Source: Candidatus Onthoplasma sp. (lineage in GTDB: Bacteria > Bacillota > Clostridia > Christensenellales > UBA1242). Taken from it: a stretch of 64,000 bases of DNA. Position 1 is the stretch's first letter. Each line of letters starts with the position of its first letter. Where the stretch lies: positions 1,345 through 65,344 of the forward strand of contig JBJETW010000014.1 of NCBI GenBank assembly GCA_051883515.1, written 5' to 3'. The position numbers and the translations under genes were made by a program. Under the pieces are notes generated by a model. That model was not told the DNA's origin. It saw only the letters and a program-made list of their open reading frames with translations, and ran no database searches. Below, piece after piece: positions 59,829-63,962 of this stretch.

Positions 59829-61058
59829 TTATTTTAGTATAACTTTTAAAAATATCTTTTTACCTTTCTTTACCACGAATTCTTTTTTGTTGATATCAAT
59901 TTTGTTATTAAGATCTACAATTCTTTCACCATCTACTAAAATTCCATTTTGGTCCACCAATCTTCGGATTTCTGATTTTGAATTAAAAATGTTTAATTTT
60001 GACAAAAAATCAATCACTTTTACATCTTTTTCAATGGATATTTCTTGTGTTGGCATATTTTCACTTTTGTTATTTCCTCCAAAAAGTTGTTCACTCGTGA
60101 GTTGTGCTTTTAATGCTTCTTCTTCGCCGTGAACAAGTTTTGTCACTTCAAAAGCCATCAATTTTTTTGCTTTAACAATATCTTCTTCACACATTTTTTT
60201 AATTTCTTTAGCATCAATTTTTGTGAAGAATTTTAACAATCGTTCAACATCTGCATCTAAGCAATTAATGAAATGTTGAAAAAATTCAAATGAAGATGTG
60301 TTATCTCTATTAACCCATAATGTACCTTTCTCAGTTTTGCCCATCTTAACTCCATCTGCGTTTGTAAGCAATGGACATGTCAACCCCATCATGACCGGCC
60401 TTTGAGTTCCATCTCTAAAATTCATTTTCCTGCTCAACTCAGTTCCCGCAACAATGTTCCCCCATTGGTCGGAACCACCAATTTGTAAAATACAATTAAA
60501 TTTATCATTTAGGTGGACGAAATCAAATGCCTGCATTAACATGTATCCCATTTCCATAAAGGTTAATCCACCTCTTTTAAGCCTGTTTTTGTATAAATCT
60601 TTTTTGAGCATTTCACTTATATTAAAATGAATTCCAACTTCTCTTAAAAAATCAATATAGCTTATAGAATTCAACCAATCAGCATTATCAACGATAATAG
60701 CCGGATTGTCTCCGTCCAAAGCAATAAATCTTTTGAGAATTCCTTTTATCTCTTTTGCATTCTTTTCAACTTCTTTTTTTGATAACATTTTTCTAATGTC
60801 TTTTTTACCACTTGGGTCACCAATTAAAGCAGTTGCTCCACCAACAAGAATTATGCACTTATGTCCACAATCTTGTAAAATTCTTGCCATCTGCAATCCA
60901 AAAAAATGACCTATATGCAAATCGTCAGCGGTTGGGTCTATTCCAAGATAAAATGTAATTGAGCCTCTTTTTAATGCATTTTTTATTTCTTCTAAATTTG
61001 TTGCTTGAAAAACAAAACCTCTGTTTTCCAATTGTTCAAACGCGTTGCTTTTAAACAT
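59829..61058 (-). CDS. tyrS: Tyrosine--tRNA ligase
   Basis: HIGH motif (DDLHIGHF), KMSKS motif (KMGKT), and a C-terminal S4-like domain. RBS is AAAGGAG. Confidence 0.95.
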   Translation of the reverse strand: MFKSNAFEQLENRGFVFQATNLEEIKNALKRGSITFYLGIDPTADDLHIGHFFGLQMARILQDCGHKCIILVGGATALIGDPSGKKDIRKMLSKKEVEKNAKEIKGILKRFIALDGDNPAIIVDNADWLNSISYIDFLREVGIHFNISEMLKKDLYKNRLKRGGLTFMEMGYMLMQAFDFVHLNDKFNCILQIGGSDQWGNIVAGTELSRKMNFRDGTQRPVMMGLTCPLLTNADGVKMGKTEKGTLWVNRDNTSSFEFFQHFINCLDADVERLLKFFTKIDAKEIKKMCEEDIVKAKKLMAFEVTKLVHGEEEALKAQLTSEQLFGGNNKSENMPTQEISIEKDVKVIDFLSKLNIFNSKSEIRRLVDQNGILVDGERIVDLNNKIDINKKEFVVKKGKKIFLKVILK

Positions 61059-61092
61059 ATATTTTCTCCTTTTTTATTTTAACATATTTTGC

Positions 61093-61146
61093 TTATTTCC
61101 CCAATACAACGCCCGAAAGGGCGTATATTTTTATTATAAATCTCAT
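61093..61146 (-). other. 17-codon sORF with strong RBS in the tyrS-proximal leader, containing a GC hairpin
   Basis: AGGAG lies 7 nt upstream. Hand translation gives MRFIIKIYALSGVVLGK, ending at TAA. It encloses ACGCCC-UUUC-GGGCGU (61109..61124). Confidence 0.25.
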
Positions 61147-61201
61147 AAATTTACTCCTAAATATAAAACTTTTTCTCAATTAAAATTTTTTAATATTAAA
61201 G

Positions 61202-61278
61202 AAAAAATCTGTCAACGTTTAATGCGACAGATTTTGAAATAAAAACTGCCACATAGTTTGAATCGCTATATGACAGAT
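61202..61278 (-). terminator. Two consecutive terminator-like hairpins in the tyrS upstream region
   Basis: T1: CUGUCAUAUAG (61276..61266) pairs with CUAUGUGGCAG (61256..61246; 11 bp including two G-U pairs), followed by UUUUUAUUU. T2: AAAAUCUGUC pairs with GACAGAUUUU (61203..61236 region), followed by UUC. Both left arms share AUCUGUC. Confidence 0.55.
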
Positions 61279-61323
61279 GTTTAATATGATACTTTACACA
61301 CAAATACTCCTACATACAGCAAT

Positions 61324-61368
61324 CTAAATGTAGTAGCAATAATATGAAATTTGTGTAAATGTTTTCAT
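61324..61368 (-). promoter_or_regulatory. 14-codon Tyr-rich leader ORF upstream of tyrS (candidate attenuation leader peptide)
   Basis: Hand translation gives ATG AAA ACA TTT ACA CAA ATT TCA TAT TAT TGC TAC TAC ATT TAG, i.e. MKTFTQISYYCYYI. AGGAG lies 7 nt upstream. It sits about 25 nt downstream of a perfect consensus promoter. Confidence 0.5.
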
Positions 61369-61393
61369 TAAATTTCTCCTATAATTATTTGTG

Positions 61394-61422
61394 ATTATAT
61401 TTCAAATTATAAAAAATGTCAA
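61394..61422 (-). promoter_or_regulatory. Perfect-consensus sigma-A promoter driving the Tyr-rich leader ORF
   Basis: Minus strand reads TTGACA (61422..61417), exactly 17 nt of spacer, then TATAAT (61399..61394). Confidence 0.6.
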
Positions 61423-61459
61423 CACATTCATTCGAAAAAACTTGTCGTTTTTTTATAAA

Positions 61460-61942
61460 CTAAATTTGCTTAAAAACTGTTATCATTCTATCAGTGTAGC
61501 CGTTTTTATAATAAAACTTCTTTGCTGTTTCATTATAAGCAAAAACATCAATTTGCACGAACTCACAATTGATAAATTTGAAATAGTCTTCCATTGTCTT
61601 TAACAGCATCGAGCCAACACCAATTTTTCTTATTCCTTTTTTTACAATAAGTTCGGATACTATTCCCTTTTTAGGACATGTATAATCTAGACTATCGCGT
61701 TCGTCATACGCTTGTATGTGTCCAGCAATAAAACCCACAACTTCACCATCGTCCATCGCAACAAAAATTTTCCCTTCATTATTTTTACAATCATCAAACA
61801 TGAATTCAAAATATTTTTTTCTATAATCTTTTGACATTATATTAAGGTTGAATTTGTCAATTTCAATAATATACTTTTGCAAATCTACTAATAAATCTTT
61901 TACGCTTTCAAAATGTATATTACTCATCTCTTCAATTTCCAT
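61460..61942 (-). CDS. GNAT-family N-acetyltransferase
   Basis: The acetyl-CoA-binding region is LIVKKGIRKIGVGSMLLKTMEDY, followed by AKKFYYKNGY. RBS is GGAG. Confidence 0.8.
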   Translation of the reverse strand: MEIEEMSNIHFESVKDLLVDLQKYIIEIDKFNLNIMSKDYRKKYFEFMFDDCKNNEGKIFVAMDDGEVVGFIAGHIQAYDERDSLDYTCPKKGIVSELIVKKGIRKIGVGSMLLKTMEDYFKFINCEFVQIDVFAYNETAKKFYYKNGYTDRMITVFKQI

Positions 61943-62034: not shown

Positions 62035-62109
62035 TGGCGTCCCCTGCGAGAATCGAACTCACAATTAGACCTTAGGAGGGTCTCGTTATATCCATTTAAC
62101 TAAGGGAAC
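62035..62109 (-). tRNA. tRNA-Arg (anticodon CCT), CCA encoded
   Basis: The 75-nt cloverleaf was folded by hand. Acceptor GTTCCCT/AGGGGAC; D arm GTTA/TAAC; anticodon arm AGACC-CTCCTAA-GGTCT; T arm GTGAG-TTCGATT-CTCGC; discriminator G followed by CCA. Confidence 0.9.
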
Positions 62110-62168: not shown

Positions 62169-62373
62169 AAAATAGAATAAAAAAATCTTACTACTTTTTA
62201 ATTTTATCAAATTAATCTTAAATGTCAAGGAAATATTTAATTGTAGTTTTGATGTGGGTTTTCAATCACCGCAATTGCTATTCTTCTTTTAATTTCGTTA
62301 TTATATTCCTTGTTAAAATTTAATTCTTTACGTTTTTTGTCAATAATTGAAGTGAAAGCAGTCTGCTTTTTGC

Positions 62374-62402
62374 TTGACAAATAAATTACATTATCTTAAA
62401 AT
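62374..62402 (+). promoter_or_regulatory. Promoter candidate for the pheS leader
   Basis: TTGACA (62374..62379), a 17-nt spacer, then TAAAAT (62397..62402). Confidence 0.5.
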
Positions 62403-62439
62403 AATTTTATCTTAACAAAAACGTTGACAATGTGTGCAG

Positions 62440-62911
62440 TAGTAAATTTGTTCCATAAAGAGAGAACGTCCTTGGTTGAGAGATGTTTATGTTCAGCAAA
62501 TTTATGAATTTCAGCATTCGAGTTGCTTTTTGGAAAAGGTAGAGCCTAATCTCTTCCGCTAAGAAAAGCCAGACAAAACTGTAAAAATGAAATGAGGTCA
62601 AAACAATCCGCGTTTTAAACAAACGCTATAGGTCAAGTTGCAAACAATAATCCGTGAGATAATTTATCGGAACTGAAAGAATAAGCAACCGACCAAAGAG
62701 TCTATAATTGCGAGTTAATCGAGCAATTTGACAAAAGGGAGTGTTGCGTTTTCTAGGGCTCCCATGAGACTTGTCGTCGAATGGGAAGGAGGAGCAACCG
62801 ACCAAAAGGTCTATAATTGCGAGTTTATCGAGCAATTTGACAAAAGGGAGTGTTGCGACGACATAGGTGGTACCACGAACAAACTCGTCCTATGATTTGG
62901 GCGAGTTTTTT
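62440..62911 (+). ncRNA. T-box riboswitch leader of pheS(T), unusually long
   Basis: The T-box sequence AGGTGGTACCACG is at 62865..62877; its UGGU can pair with the ACCA end of tRNA-Phe. Antiterminator helix CATAGG (62862..62867) pairs with CCTATG (62889..62894). This competes with the terminator CTCGTCC (62884..62890) / GGGCGAG (62899..62905), which is followed by T6. The 5' part begins AAAGAGAGAACG...GGTTGAGAGATG. A candidate specifier UUC-A lies at 62510..62513, but I could not fold Stem I with confidence. Confidence 0.8.
62651..62868 (+). repeat. Tandem duplication (period 109 nt) inside the pheS leader
   Basis: The 65-nt cores at 62684..62748 and 62793..62857 are identical at 62 of 65 positions by hand alignment. 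The flanks are more diverged but alignable: TCCGTGAGA... versus TCCCATGAGA... upstream, and CTAGGGCTCCCATGA versus CATAGGTGGTACCACGA downstream. Confidence 0.85.
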
Positions 62912-62939
62912 GTTAATGTGAAAAAGAAAAGGAGAAAAT

Positions 62940-63962
62940 ATGCAAGATAGAATAAATGAAATTTTAAATTACACAAGAGAAAAAGTTGAGCAAGCGAAAA
63001 CAAGTGCGGAATGTCAAACTTTGAGAGTGGAAATACTTGGGAAAAACGGAAAATTGACTGAAATGTTCCGCTTTATGAAAGATGTTCCAGCAAATGAAAA
63101 GCAAGCGATGGGACAACTTTTAAACACTGCAAAACAAAATGCTGAATCAATGATTTCCGCAAAAGAAAAATTCCTTTCAGACAACGAATTGAATGAAAAA
63201 CTTATGAAAGAGAAAATTGATGTCACTTTAGATAAAGGTGATGAAGAAATTGGTGCACTTCACCCTGTGACAATTGATTTCATTCGTATGGGCGAAATTT
63301 TGACCGGCATGGGATTTTCTCAAATTGATGGACCAGAAATTGAATGGGATAAGTATAACTTTGAACTTGTAAACGTTCCAAAAGACCACCCAAGCAGAGA
63401 CATGCAAGATAGTTTGTACATCACAAACGACATTCTTTTAAGAACACAAACATCAAACACTCAACCAAGAGCAATGGAAAAAATTAAACCACCTTTCAAA
63501 GTGTTTAGTTTCGGGAGAGTTTTCAGAAAAGATGAAATTGACGCCACACACACTCCTGCTTTCCATCAACTCGAAGGAATTTATATTGACAAAAAAGTGT
63601 CACTTGCTGACTTAAAACATGACTTAACAATAATGCTTCAAAAATATTTAGGAGAAGACACAAAAACAAAATTTAGAGCATCATTCTTCCCTTTCACAGA
63701 GCCAAGTGTGGAAGTTGACGCTGAATGCAATGTGTGCAAAGGAAAAGGTTGTCCAGCATGCAAAGGTGCAGGACAATATGAAATTCTTGGTGCAGGAATG
63801 ATTCACCCAAGAGTTTTGGAATTGAACGGAATTGACCCAAATGAATATTCAGGATACGCGTTCGGACTTGGTTTTGACCGCTTCCCAAAAATGAGATATA
63901 AAATTCCTAACGCAAAAGTTATGTTCGAAAATGATATTCGTTTCATCAAACAATTTAAGTAA
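62940..63962 (+). CDS. pheS: Phenylalanine--tRNA ligase alpha subunit
   Basis: Class II motifs are present (HPSRDMQDSLY, FRKDEIDATHTPAFHQLEG, GFGLGFDR). RBS is AAAGGAG. pheT presumably starts just beyond the window. Confidence 0.95.
   Translation: MQDRINEILNYTREKVEQAKTSAECQTLRVEILGKNGKLTEMFRFMKDVPANEKQAMGQLLNTAKQNAESMISAKEKFLSDNELNEKLMKEKIDVTLDKGDEEIGALHPVTIDFIRMGEILTGMGFSQIDGPEIEWDKYNFELVNVPKDHPSRDMQDSLYITNDILLRTQTSNTQPRAMEKIKPPFKVFSFGRVFRKDEIDATHTPAFHQLEGIYIDKKVSLADLKHDLTIMLQKYLGEDTKTKFRASFFPFTEPSVEVDAECNVCKGKGCPACKGAGQYEILGAGMIHPRVLELNGIDPNEYSGYAFGLGFDRFPKMRYKIPNAKVMFENDIRFIKQFK

Follow-up and report, generated by a model that had tools for sequence, protein, structure and literature searches.

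Whether an unusually long leader contains one T-box or two is the question raised by the pheS gene of Candidatus Onthoplasma sp. The DNA analysed here, called the window, is a stretch of 64,000 nucleotides (nt) of contig JBJETW010000014.1, and all coordinates are window positions. The pheS leader extends over about 530 nt, from the promoter (62374-62402) to the ATG (62940). An initial annotation had described it as about twice the normal length through a tandem duplication, with one decayed copy of the T-box. The length and the duplication were borne out, the distance between the Stem IIA/B element and the T-box being 283 nt in the window and 31-50 nt in minimal relatives. The second T-box was not, as a single Stem I with a single specifier and a single T-box bulge were found. 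The leader probably represents one phenylalanine (Phe)-specific T-box, in which Stem III has been expanded by tandem structured units of variable number.

For comparison, about 35 pheS leaders (designated by L numbers) were gathered from reference genomes, public assemblies and metagenomes, and these belong to Candidatus Onthoplasma or Christensenellales-like metagenome-assembled genomes from the gut. The PheS proteins nearest to that of the window are 86-88% identical and come from uncultured gut Clostridia (Candidatus Onthoplasma or Christensenella-like). These leaders have Stem I and Stem II in common, as well as the T-box GGUGGUACCACGA and the IIA/B motif CAGACAAAACUGURAAAAUG with ...AAUGAGG after it, and most of them carry the specifier AUGUUCA.

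A single T-box upstream of pheS

No match to the Rfam T-box family RF00230 was obtained in the window at the Rfam gathering threshold (93 bits). A permissive search gave two partial matches flanking an insert of about 230 nt. With 60.6 bits, the match at 62415-62629 takes in Stems I and II together with the IIA/B pseudoknot and a small hairpin. The match at 62722-62895 (23.7 bits) is confident over the T-box and antiterminator only, its 5' part being a low-confidence alignment across the repeat. The covariance-model scan that had been proposed for counting the T-boxes hence split the leader instead of returning one hit of standard length, and neither of the two pieces is a second T-box. In control searches, relatives with a Stem III region of 39-63 nt gave a single full-length match of 67-102 bits, which indicates that it is largely the insert that breaks the model in the window. 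With L010 and L013, no RF00230 match was found at E <= 0.001.

A single T-box core is present in the whole window, even when up to three mismatches are allowed, and likewise a single Stem I with its specifier. Within Stem I, the AGAGA bulge (about 62459), the distal loop GGUUGAGAG (62474-62482) and the specifier loop were located. The T-box sequence CATAGGTGGTACCACGA (62862-62878) is part of an antiterminator, CAUAGG-UGGUACC-ACGA...UCGU-CCUAUG, which folds canonically with a 7-nt bulge between helices A1 and A2. This structure and the terminator are mutually exclusive, the terminator using the 3' strands of both A1 and A2. Two complete T-boxes in tandem were rejected because neither a second specifier-bearing Stem I nor a second T-box with antiterminator and terminator was found in the leader. 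By these structural criteria, the pheS leader is one transcriptional T-box, with a predicted response to tRNA-Phe. The tRNA would be read by the sole Stem I through the specifier UUC, and the 3' end of uncharged tRNA would be captured by the sole UGGUACC bulge, so that the antiterminator would be favoured over the terminator upstream of pheS.

A separate ligand had also been considered for the duplicated segment. No other Rfam family was matched by the insert at E <= 10, and no second ligand-sensing domain was found in the leader. A permissive Rfam scan of 62300-63000 returned, besides the pieces of the T-box, chance-level matches to snoZ155 (E = 0.42) and preQ1-II (E = 4.1), over the Shine-Dalgarno region. 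It is hence probable that the expansion does not sense a second ligand.

The duplication in the window

In a repeat search, 62670-62748 was aligned with 62779-62857 at a spacing of 109 nt, with 89% identity across 79 nt. The two 65-nt cores (62684-62748 and 62793-62857) are identical at 62 positions, as had been stated before and was confirmed by a count of our own, and the mismatches lie at 62698, 62699 and 62717. The 44-nt flanks preceding the cores agree at 14 positions, and the whole 109-nt units at 76. The window contains exactly two copies of each half of the core, and 100 shuffled sequences contained none. A mobile or dispersed repeat was rejected, since neither the core halves nor the motif of the adjoining hairpin (P1, see below) has further copies in the 64-kb window. 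An exact 39-nt pattern from the core gave no match in the JGI metagenomes, and only one other contig is known from the species of the window, which is truncated.

It is extremely improbable that the duplication was made, or the copy number collapsed, by short-read assembly. The cores do share an identical run of about 41 nt, at which assemblers struggle; a separate Logan contig, encoding an identical PheS, terminates exactly inside the identical core. However, such a break is expected of a k-mer assembler at a true repeat and thus lends it independent support. The two copies also differ at three positions, their unrelated flanks are joined continuously, and analogous tandem units are present in many independent assemblies.

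Folds of the whole region at minimum free energy were uninformative, being swamped by cross-pairing of the identical cores; local folds and comparative evidence were used instead. On its own, the core folds locally as a single rod with the helices GCAAC/GUUGC, CC/GG, GUC/GAC and AAUUGC/GCAAUU. A three-way junction with a GACC-AAAA-GGUC hairpin had been drawn for it earlier, but this is not the fold of minimum free energy, and the two substitutions in copy A weaken it while GUC/GAC is kept. Each rod is preceded by a hairpin termed P1, which is weak in the first unit (P1-A, UCCG...CGGA, -4.2 kcal/mol, z = -0.9) and stable in the second (P1-B, CUCCCAU...AUGGGAG, -13.0 kcal/mol, z = -3.4).

Length of the Stem III region among relatives

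Among the leaders compared, the IIA/B element and the T-box are separated by 31-492 nt. The lengths include 31, 35, 39, 41, 42, 50, 63, 66, 78, 141, 146, 174, 176, 189, 193, 198, 201, 283 (the window), 287, 299, 303, 324, 408 and 492 nt. In the simplest relatives, Stem III is a hairpin of about 17 nt, compared with about 250 nt in the window. The lengths change among close relatives: a span of 39-324 nt was recorded for L002-L005, L007, L023 and L024, whose PheS proteins share 95.5% identity or more with one cluster representative, and the closest PheS relatives of the window (87-88%; L081, L082, L084, L087 and L088) have only 39-50 nt. The comparison with relatives proposed earlier therefore had a divided outcome. 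The duplication is absent from the closest relatives, which speaks against the module, and analogous modules with compensatory changes occur in others, which speaks for it.

In L004 and L106 (141 nt), L008 (174 nt), L009 (174 nt) and L014 (78 nt), the region is mostly AU-rich and has no clear P1 or rod unit, and the Stem III site thus appears to accept unrelated insertions too.

Architecture of the units

The long inserts were found to consist of 0 to about 5 tandem units of 105-117 nt each, and a unit is composed of a P1 hairpin and a rod hairpin. At the same place as in the window, tandem units are present in L002 (117 nt, about 2.2 copies), L010 (109-nt spacing, 99% identity), L013 (108-nt spacing, 100% identity), L089 (110 nt) and L101 and L102 (three units each).

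The P1 hairpin has the form GGG-NN-CCCAY-(GA or AA)-upper stem-(GA or GCA)-RUGGG, and its internal loop is rich in purines. Over 11 distinct units, 98.5% of the lower stem is paired, and both terminal pairs covary, U-A being exchanged with C-G. In the upper stem, the sequence differs while pairing is kept (GAAC/GUUC, GUGUC/GAUAC, GUGUC/GACAC, GCAC/GUGC, GAC/GUC and GUGUU/AAUGC). In the window and 110 loci, the motif is confined to the Stem III regions of pheS leaders. The earlier view that the diverged flanks keep their hairpins through compensatory changes is thus sustained by the conservation of P1 across relatives. The assignment of P1 as a K-turn was rejected on inspection, because the 3-nt bulge is missing and the internal loop is either a symmetric GA/GA or AA/GCA.

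The rods fall into more than one type. In the commonest, the C-type (10 units, four-helix model), 91% of the cells are paired and 10 of the 18 pairs have changed on both sides. Its covariation score is 0.436, compared with 0.206 for shuffles (none of 500 as high), and partners that were slid out of register pair at 23-41%. The rods of the window are of another type, the W-type, which was found elsewhere only in L013. The W-type rods of the window and of L013 have the same folded architecture, with GUC/GAC in the former and GGC/GCC in the latter. Folding and covariation together bear out the description of the duplicated units as Stem III-like structured modules.

L013 contains the largest expansion (1902-2393, 492 nt), in which both unit types are mixed. 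Its W-type rod is seemingly nested between the 5' strand of a P1 and a distal GGUGGGA, and two of its C-type cores are 100% identical.

The insert and the Stem III base helix

In every leader, the segments directly 3' of the IIA/B purine string and directly 5' of the T-box linker are complementary. The resulting base helices differ by lineage, for example GUCGCAAC/AUUGCGAC, GGUUCAUAAAC/GUUUGUGAGC, GCAAAC/GUUUGC and GUCAAAUUUG/CAAAAUUGAC. When strands from the same species were paired, the duplexes had a mean of -11.05 kcal/mol, compared with -4.6 kcal/mol for cross-species pairs, and none of 2000 permutations was as low. Restricting the test to the 17 leaders that carry long inserts gave a mean of -12.4 kcal/mol (again none of 2000 as low). 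As this covarying helix would enclose the insert, the insert probably lies topologically inside Stem III.

Changes in unit number

The leaders L010 and L101 differ, over about 570 nt, by three single-nucleotide polymorphisms and one clean insertion or deletion of a 105-nt unit, the junction of which lies in a 20-mer shared by neighbouring units. L010 has two units, and L101 and L102, which are independent and agreeing assemblies, have three. The second unit of L010 consists of the P1 of unit 2 and the rod of unit 3 of L101. Similarly, L089 has two units and L005 has one, although their PheS proteins are 99.4% identical, and the single unit of L005 is a mosaic of the two in L089. Such whole-unit differences between near-identical relatives point to unequal recombination or gene conversion among units. 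These processes would also leave near-identical cores beside diverged P1 hairpins, and selection on the core is then not needed. Selection had been put forward to explain this contrast between core and flanks, and recombination between units, as seen in L010 and L101, fits better. Under the preferred reading, Stem III would have grown to about 250 nt by tandem amplification of a unit of about 109 nt made up of P1 and rod, and the number and make-up of the units would shift fast through unequal recombination or gene conversion.

Look-alikes of the T-box

The segment CTAGGGCTCCCATGA (62753-62767), which had been taken for a decayed T-box, is the 5' half of P1-B and belongs to the motif GGGNNCCCAY...RUGGG. 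Its score against the real T-box is 3.0, and random positions in the same inserts score 2.5 +/- 1.3, so that the earlier interpretation is weak. It lacks the UGGN bulge and forms a conserved hairpin of its own with the downstream RUGGG. The other look-alike, at 62626-62647, had been listed as T-box-like, but its similarity is to the beginning of Stem III, AGGUCAAAACAAUCCG (62595-62610), and it probably arose as an older partial duplication.

These segments bear on the proposal that a riboswitch, or its discriminator (Stem III plus T-box), was duplicated and that the upstream copy is decaying. A G-rich/C-rich segment of the CTAGGGCTCCCATGA type is located 3' of every internal rod, at the position where the last rod meets the T-box. 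In L016 and L019, a repeat of the 14-19 nt that adjoin the T-box on its 5' side is seen before the P1 motif (by-eye comparison), and the P1 5' halves of some relatives score 5-7 against their own T-box. Descent of the P1 5' segment from a duplicated segment of Stem III and T-box is therefore plausible. Nevertheless, a degenerating tandem T-box is very unlikely. Neither Stem I, the specifier nor the UGGN bulge occurs a second time in the leader, and the score of the look-alike in the window is inside the control range. The motif pairs with RUGGG instead of forming the A1 and A2 helices, its AAG variants would be unable to pair with the 5' strand of the terminator (CUCGU), and the supposedly decayed form is conserved across lineages, which is unlike decay. 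A role of the pseudo-T-box as a tRNA-independent antiterminator strand was also rejected on inspection, because the CUCGU-CCU pairing is not kept (AAG variants occur, and the A1 flanks show no covariation).

Possible role of the expansion

The expansion is most likely a tolerated module, which may tune the response; this reading rests on the modelled folds, in which each unit forms its structure independently and neither the base helix nor the purine strings are lost. Autonomous folding means that the core tRNA-sensing machinery should be preserved. A longer leader would increase the time and distance between capture of the tRNA by Stem I and the decision at the terminator, and it might alter the folding of Stem III and the discriminator. 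The regulatory effect is most likely quantitative.

Several points weigh against the expanded Stem III as described above. The strand 62851-62856 is contested between the base helix and the helix that closes rod B (62794-62799 with 62851-62856), and in relatives, the closing helix of the last rod also shares the 3' strand of the base helix. In the window, the purine string AUGAGG is followed by the base helix (62597-62609/62847-62859); alternatively, Stem III would be rod B, preceded by GGAAGGAGGA. Judged from the pairing potential, the expansion is thus either enclosed by the conserved base helix or in competition with it. The W-type rod is known from only one other genome (L013), and the covariation of the window rods rests on three sequences. 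The covariation statistics in general are inflated, to an unknown degree, by the relatedness of the sequences, and the unit numbers compared come from short-read assemblies, in which some collapse is possible. The P1 sequence GGGNNCCCAY is kept across lineages with only about 80-86% PheS identity, which is more than a tolerated spacer predicts and leaves room for a specific partner. The quantitative tuning role, finally, is something that we infer.

The conservation of P1 is the starting point for a different view, in which the units are accessory modules with a partner of their own, either a protein that would recognize the GGGNNCCCAY hairpin and the tandem G-A in its internal loop, or an additional contact with tRNA-Phe, and unit number would set the strength of a second regulatory input. 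The sequence and structure of P1 are kept in several sub-lineages with different rod types, and P1 carries a purine-rich internal loop (GA/GA or AA/GCA). Such loops are a common protein-binding feature. A precedent is given by T-box insertions, which may form new contacts according to reviews (PMC9177973, PMC7583486). On the other hand, the units are missing in many close relatives, including those nearest to the window (39-50 nt), and hence appear dispensable, and their number differs between near-identical strains. Moreover, no known RNA family matches, P1 is without the 3-nt bulge of a K-turn, and the locus has no linked gene that would be a candidate for the partner. Accessory modules of this kind are considered fairly unlikely.

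A stronger form of the tuning role was also considered, in which Stem III would be a mutable dial and gain or loss of units would heritably and reversibly reset the response of pheST to the charging of tRNA-Phe. This could occur through the transcription time before the terminator, through 5' strands competing for the base strand, or through a P1-binding factor. It is regarded as quite unlikely; if true, it would constitute a contingency-like locus inside a riboswitch.

Relation to known T-box insertions

The expanded pheS leader, read as a single T-box, belongs with the lineage-specific T-box insertions and differs from them as a number-variable tandem repeat inside Stem III. In the met leader of Staphylococcus aureus, 150 nt of extra stem-loops (three hairpins, L I-III) are present between IIA/B and Stem III, and the added time of transcription was suggested as a possible aid to recognition of the tRNA (PMC7913692). 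Like metICFE-mdh (met), the pheS leader is a transcriptional T-box of unusual length, canonical in Stem I, Stem II, the IIA/B pseudoknot, the T-box and the terminator, with lineage-specific stem-loops between IIA/B and the T-box, and in neither case is a separate ligand known for the insertion. The pheS leader of the window also agrees with the definition of a met-type insertion (PMC7913692), as its hairpin-built region measures 283 nt compared with 31-50 nt in minimal relatives. Unlike the met insertion, that of pheS consists of tandem repeats of one unit, numbering 0 to about 5 among relatives and varying between near-identical strains, and it is placed inside a covarying Stem III base helix and not upstream of a separate Stem III. 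It also regulates pheS, in uncultured gut Clostridia, and the likeness concerns the architecture as described, not sequence homology.

Stem Sa of the staphylococcal glyS leader improves the discrimination between tRNA isoacceptors (PMC9177973, PMC7583486). It resembles the pheS insertion in being a lineage-specific hairpin appended to the discriminator half, and it modulates read-through rather than creating it (PMC9177973). However, Sa consists of one 42-nt hairpin, which lies in the antiterminator/terminator domain and is a fixed feature of every staphylococcus, whereas the pheS insertion is in Stem III, repetitive and variable in number.

Bacillus leaders of the trp and thrZ type are examples of tandem T-boxes. 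Tandem and partially tandem T-boxes (PMC7583486) share with the pheS leader the great length and the presence of repeated elements, which are T-box-derived in the former and possibly so in the latter. In tandem T-boxes, however, complete sensing units are repeated, each with a specifier and a T-box, and in the pheS leader only a Stem III-like module is repeated, with a single specifier and T-box. In its head-to-tail mosaic units of 105-117 nt and its whole-unit insertions or deletions at shared sequence in near-identical genomes, the locus is similar to variable-number tandem repeats or minisatellites. Unlike an ordinary repeat of this type, it is situated within a riboswitch helix, and the RNA structure is kept by compensatory changes.

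The functions of "partially tandem T-boxes" and of "curious insertions in every domain" have been listed as open questions in reviews (PMC7583486). The clade offers a natural series, in which the copy number of one structured insert in the same riboswitch is 0, 1, 2, 3 or higher. The insert is located in Stem III, and it is this helix that makes the aminoacylation-sensing discriminator complete. The series is hence suited to direct tests of how the length and structure of the Stem III region affect co-transcriptional tRNA sensing. It also indicates that a tandem repeat can evolve fast inside a riboswitch helix while the base helix is retained, and it explains why annotation by covariance models misses or splits such leaders (the window, L010 and L013).

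Features of the locus

The features of the leader are collected in Table 1.

Table 1. Coordinates of the elements of the pheS leader in the window
Feature	Position	Strand	Remarks
Sigma-70-type promoter	62374..62402	+	TTGACA, 17-nt spacer, TAAAAT; 11/12 match
T-box Stem I	62421..62523	+	Rfam RF00230 alignment and motif coordinates
Specifier codon UUC (Phe)	62492..62494	+	Followed by the conserved purine A62495; within AUGUUCAGC (62489-62497)
Stem II	62526..62569	+	Rfam alignment
Stem IIA/B pseudoknot (CAGACAAAACUGUAAAAAUG) and purine string ...AUGAGG	62570..62596	+	Conserved clade-wide
Stem III base helix, 5' strand (GUCAAAACAAUCC)	62597..62609	+	Duplex with 62847-62859, -11.5 kcal/mol
Small hairpin within the expansion, GCGUUU-UAAAC-AAACGC	62610..62626	+	-5.6 kcal/mol, z = -3.5
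Third look-alike, CTATAGGTCAAGTTGCAAACAA	62626..62647	+	By-eye comparison with the start of Stem III
P1-A, UCCG-UGAGAUAAUUUAU-CGGA	62651..62671	+	Weak, diverged form of the first hairpin of the unit; aligns with P1-B
Rod A (core copy A)	62684..62748	+	Long Stem III-like hairpin; -18.1 kcal/mol, z = -2.8
P1-B hairpin, GGG-CU-CCCAU-GA-GAC...GUC-GA-AUGGG	62756..62788	+	Clade-conserved motif; -13.0 kcal/mol, z = -3.4
Rod B (core copy B)	62793..62857	+	-18.9 kcal/mol, z = -3.4
Stem III base helix, 3' strand (GGAGUGUUGCGAC)	62847..62859	+	
T-box and antiterminator	62862..62897	+	A1 CAUAGG/CCUAUG, 7-nt bulge UGGUACC, A2 ACGA/UCGU
Intrinsic terminator, AAACUCGUCC...GGGCGAGUUU and U run	62881..62911 (hairpin 62881-62908)	+	-19.6 kcal/mol
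pheS, regulated gene, 340 amino acids	62940..63962	+	Shine-Dalgarno AAGGAG at 62929-62934

Open reading frames are present in the insert at 62728-62895 (+), 62771-62866 (+) and 62626-62835 (-); they have TTG starts, and no Shine-Dalgarno sequence was seen upstream of them. A leader peptide or small open reading frame in the insert was rejected, as relatives, with inserts of unrelated sequence, contain no equivalent of these frames.

Other observations at the locus and in relatives

Upstream of the neighbouring tyrS (59829-61058, minus strand), no T-box leader was detected in 61059-61500 at E <= 1, which left the window without another leader to compare. A gene for tRNA-Arg(CCU) is located at 62035-62109 on the minus strand, about 265 nt upstream of the pheS promoter and on the strand opposite to it. 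The translation of pheS contains, at 63723-63764, a C-x2-C...C-x2-C stretch (CNVCKGKGCPACKG) that resembles a small zinc-binding insertion.

The specifier is AUGUUAA in L002, L003, L005, L007 and L105, and these leaders therefore carry UUA, a codon for leucine, though the gene is pheS. L023 is almost the same as L007 but reads UUC at the specifier. The T-box of L100 (Ga0123355_10367403) has the same IIA/B motif, a different Stem I and specifier region and a Stem III region of 41 nt, and it is found upstream of a different gene, the product of which starts with MADAKKIYLVGKGD....

In the 861-1300 nt of upstream sequence available for L090-L094 (PheS cluster P0009), neither an IIA/B motif nor a T-box could be recognised; an acetyltransferase gene ends 95 nt before pheS, and a gene for an ASCH-domain protein is placed between pheS and pheT. 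The T-box appears to have been lost in this lineage.

In several close relatives, an unrelated gene, different from case to case, lies between the T-box terminator and pheS, ending about 10 nt before the start of pheS or overlapping it. Such genes are located at 396-1190 in L081, L083 and L084, 651-1190 in L087, 87-1211 in L085 and L086, 612-1205 in L088 and 766-1290 in L089. They include an S-adenosylmethionine (SAM)-methyltransferase, a Ser_hydrolase, a PglZ/phosphodiesterase-like protein and two unknown open reading frames. In L003, L005 and L019, the T-box is about 600 nt upstream of pheS, and the window is without an intervening gene. The gap between terminator and pheS looks like a hot spot for cargo genes under T-box control.

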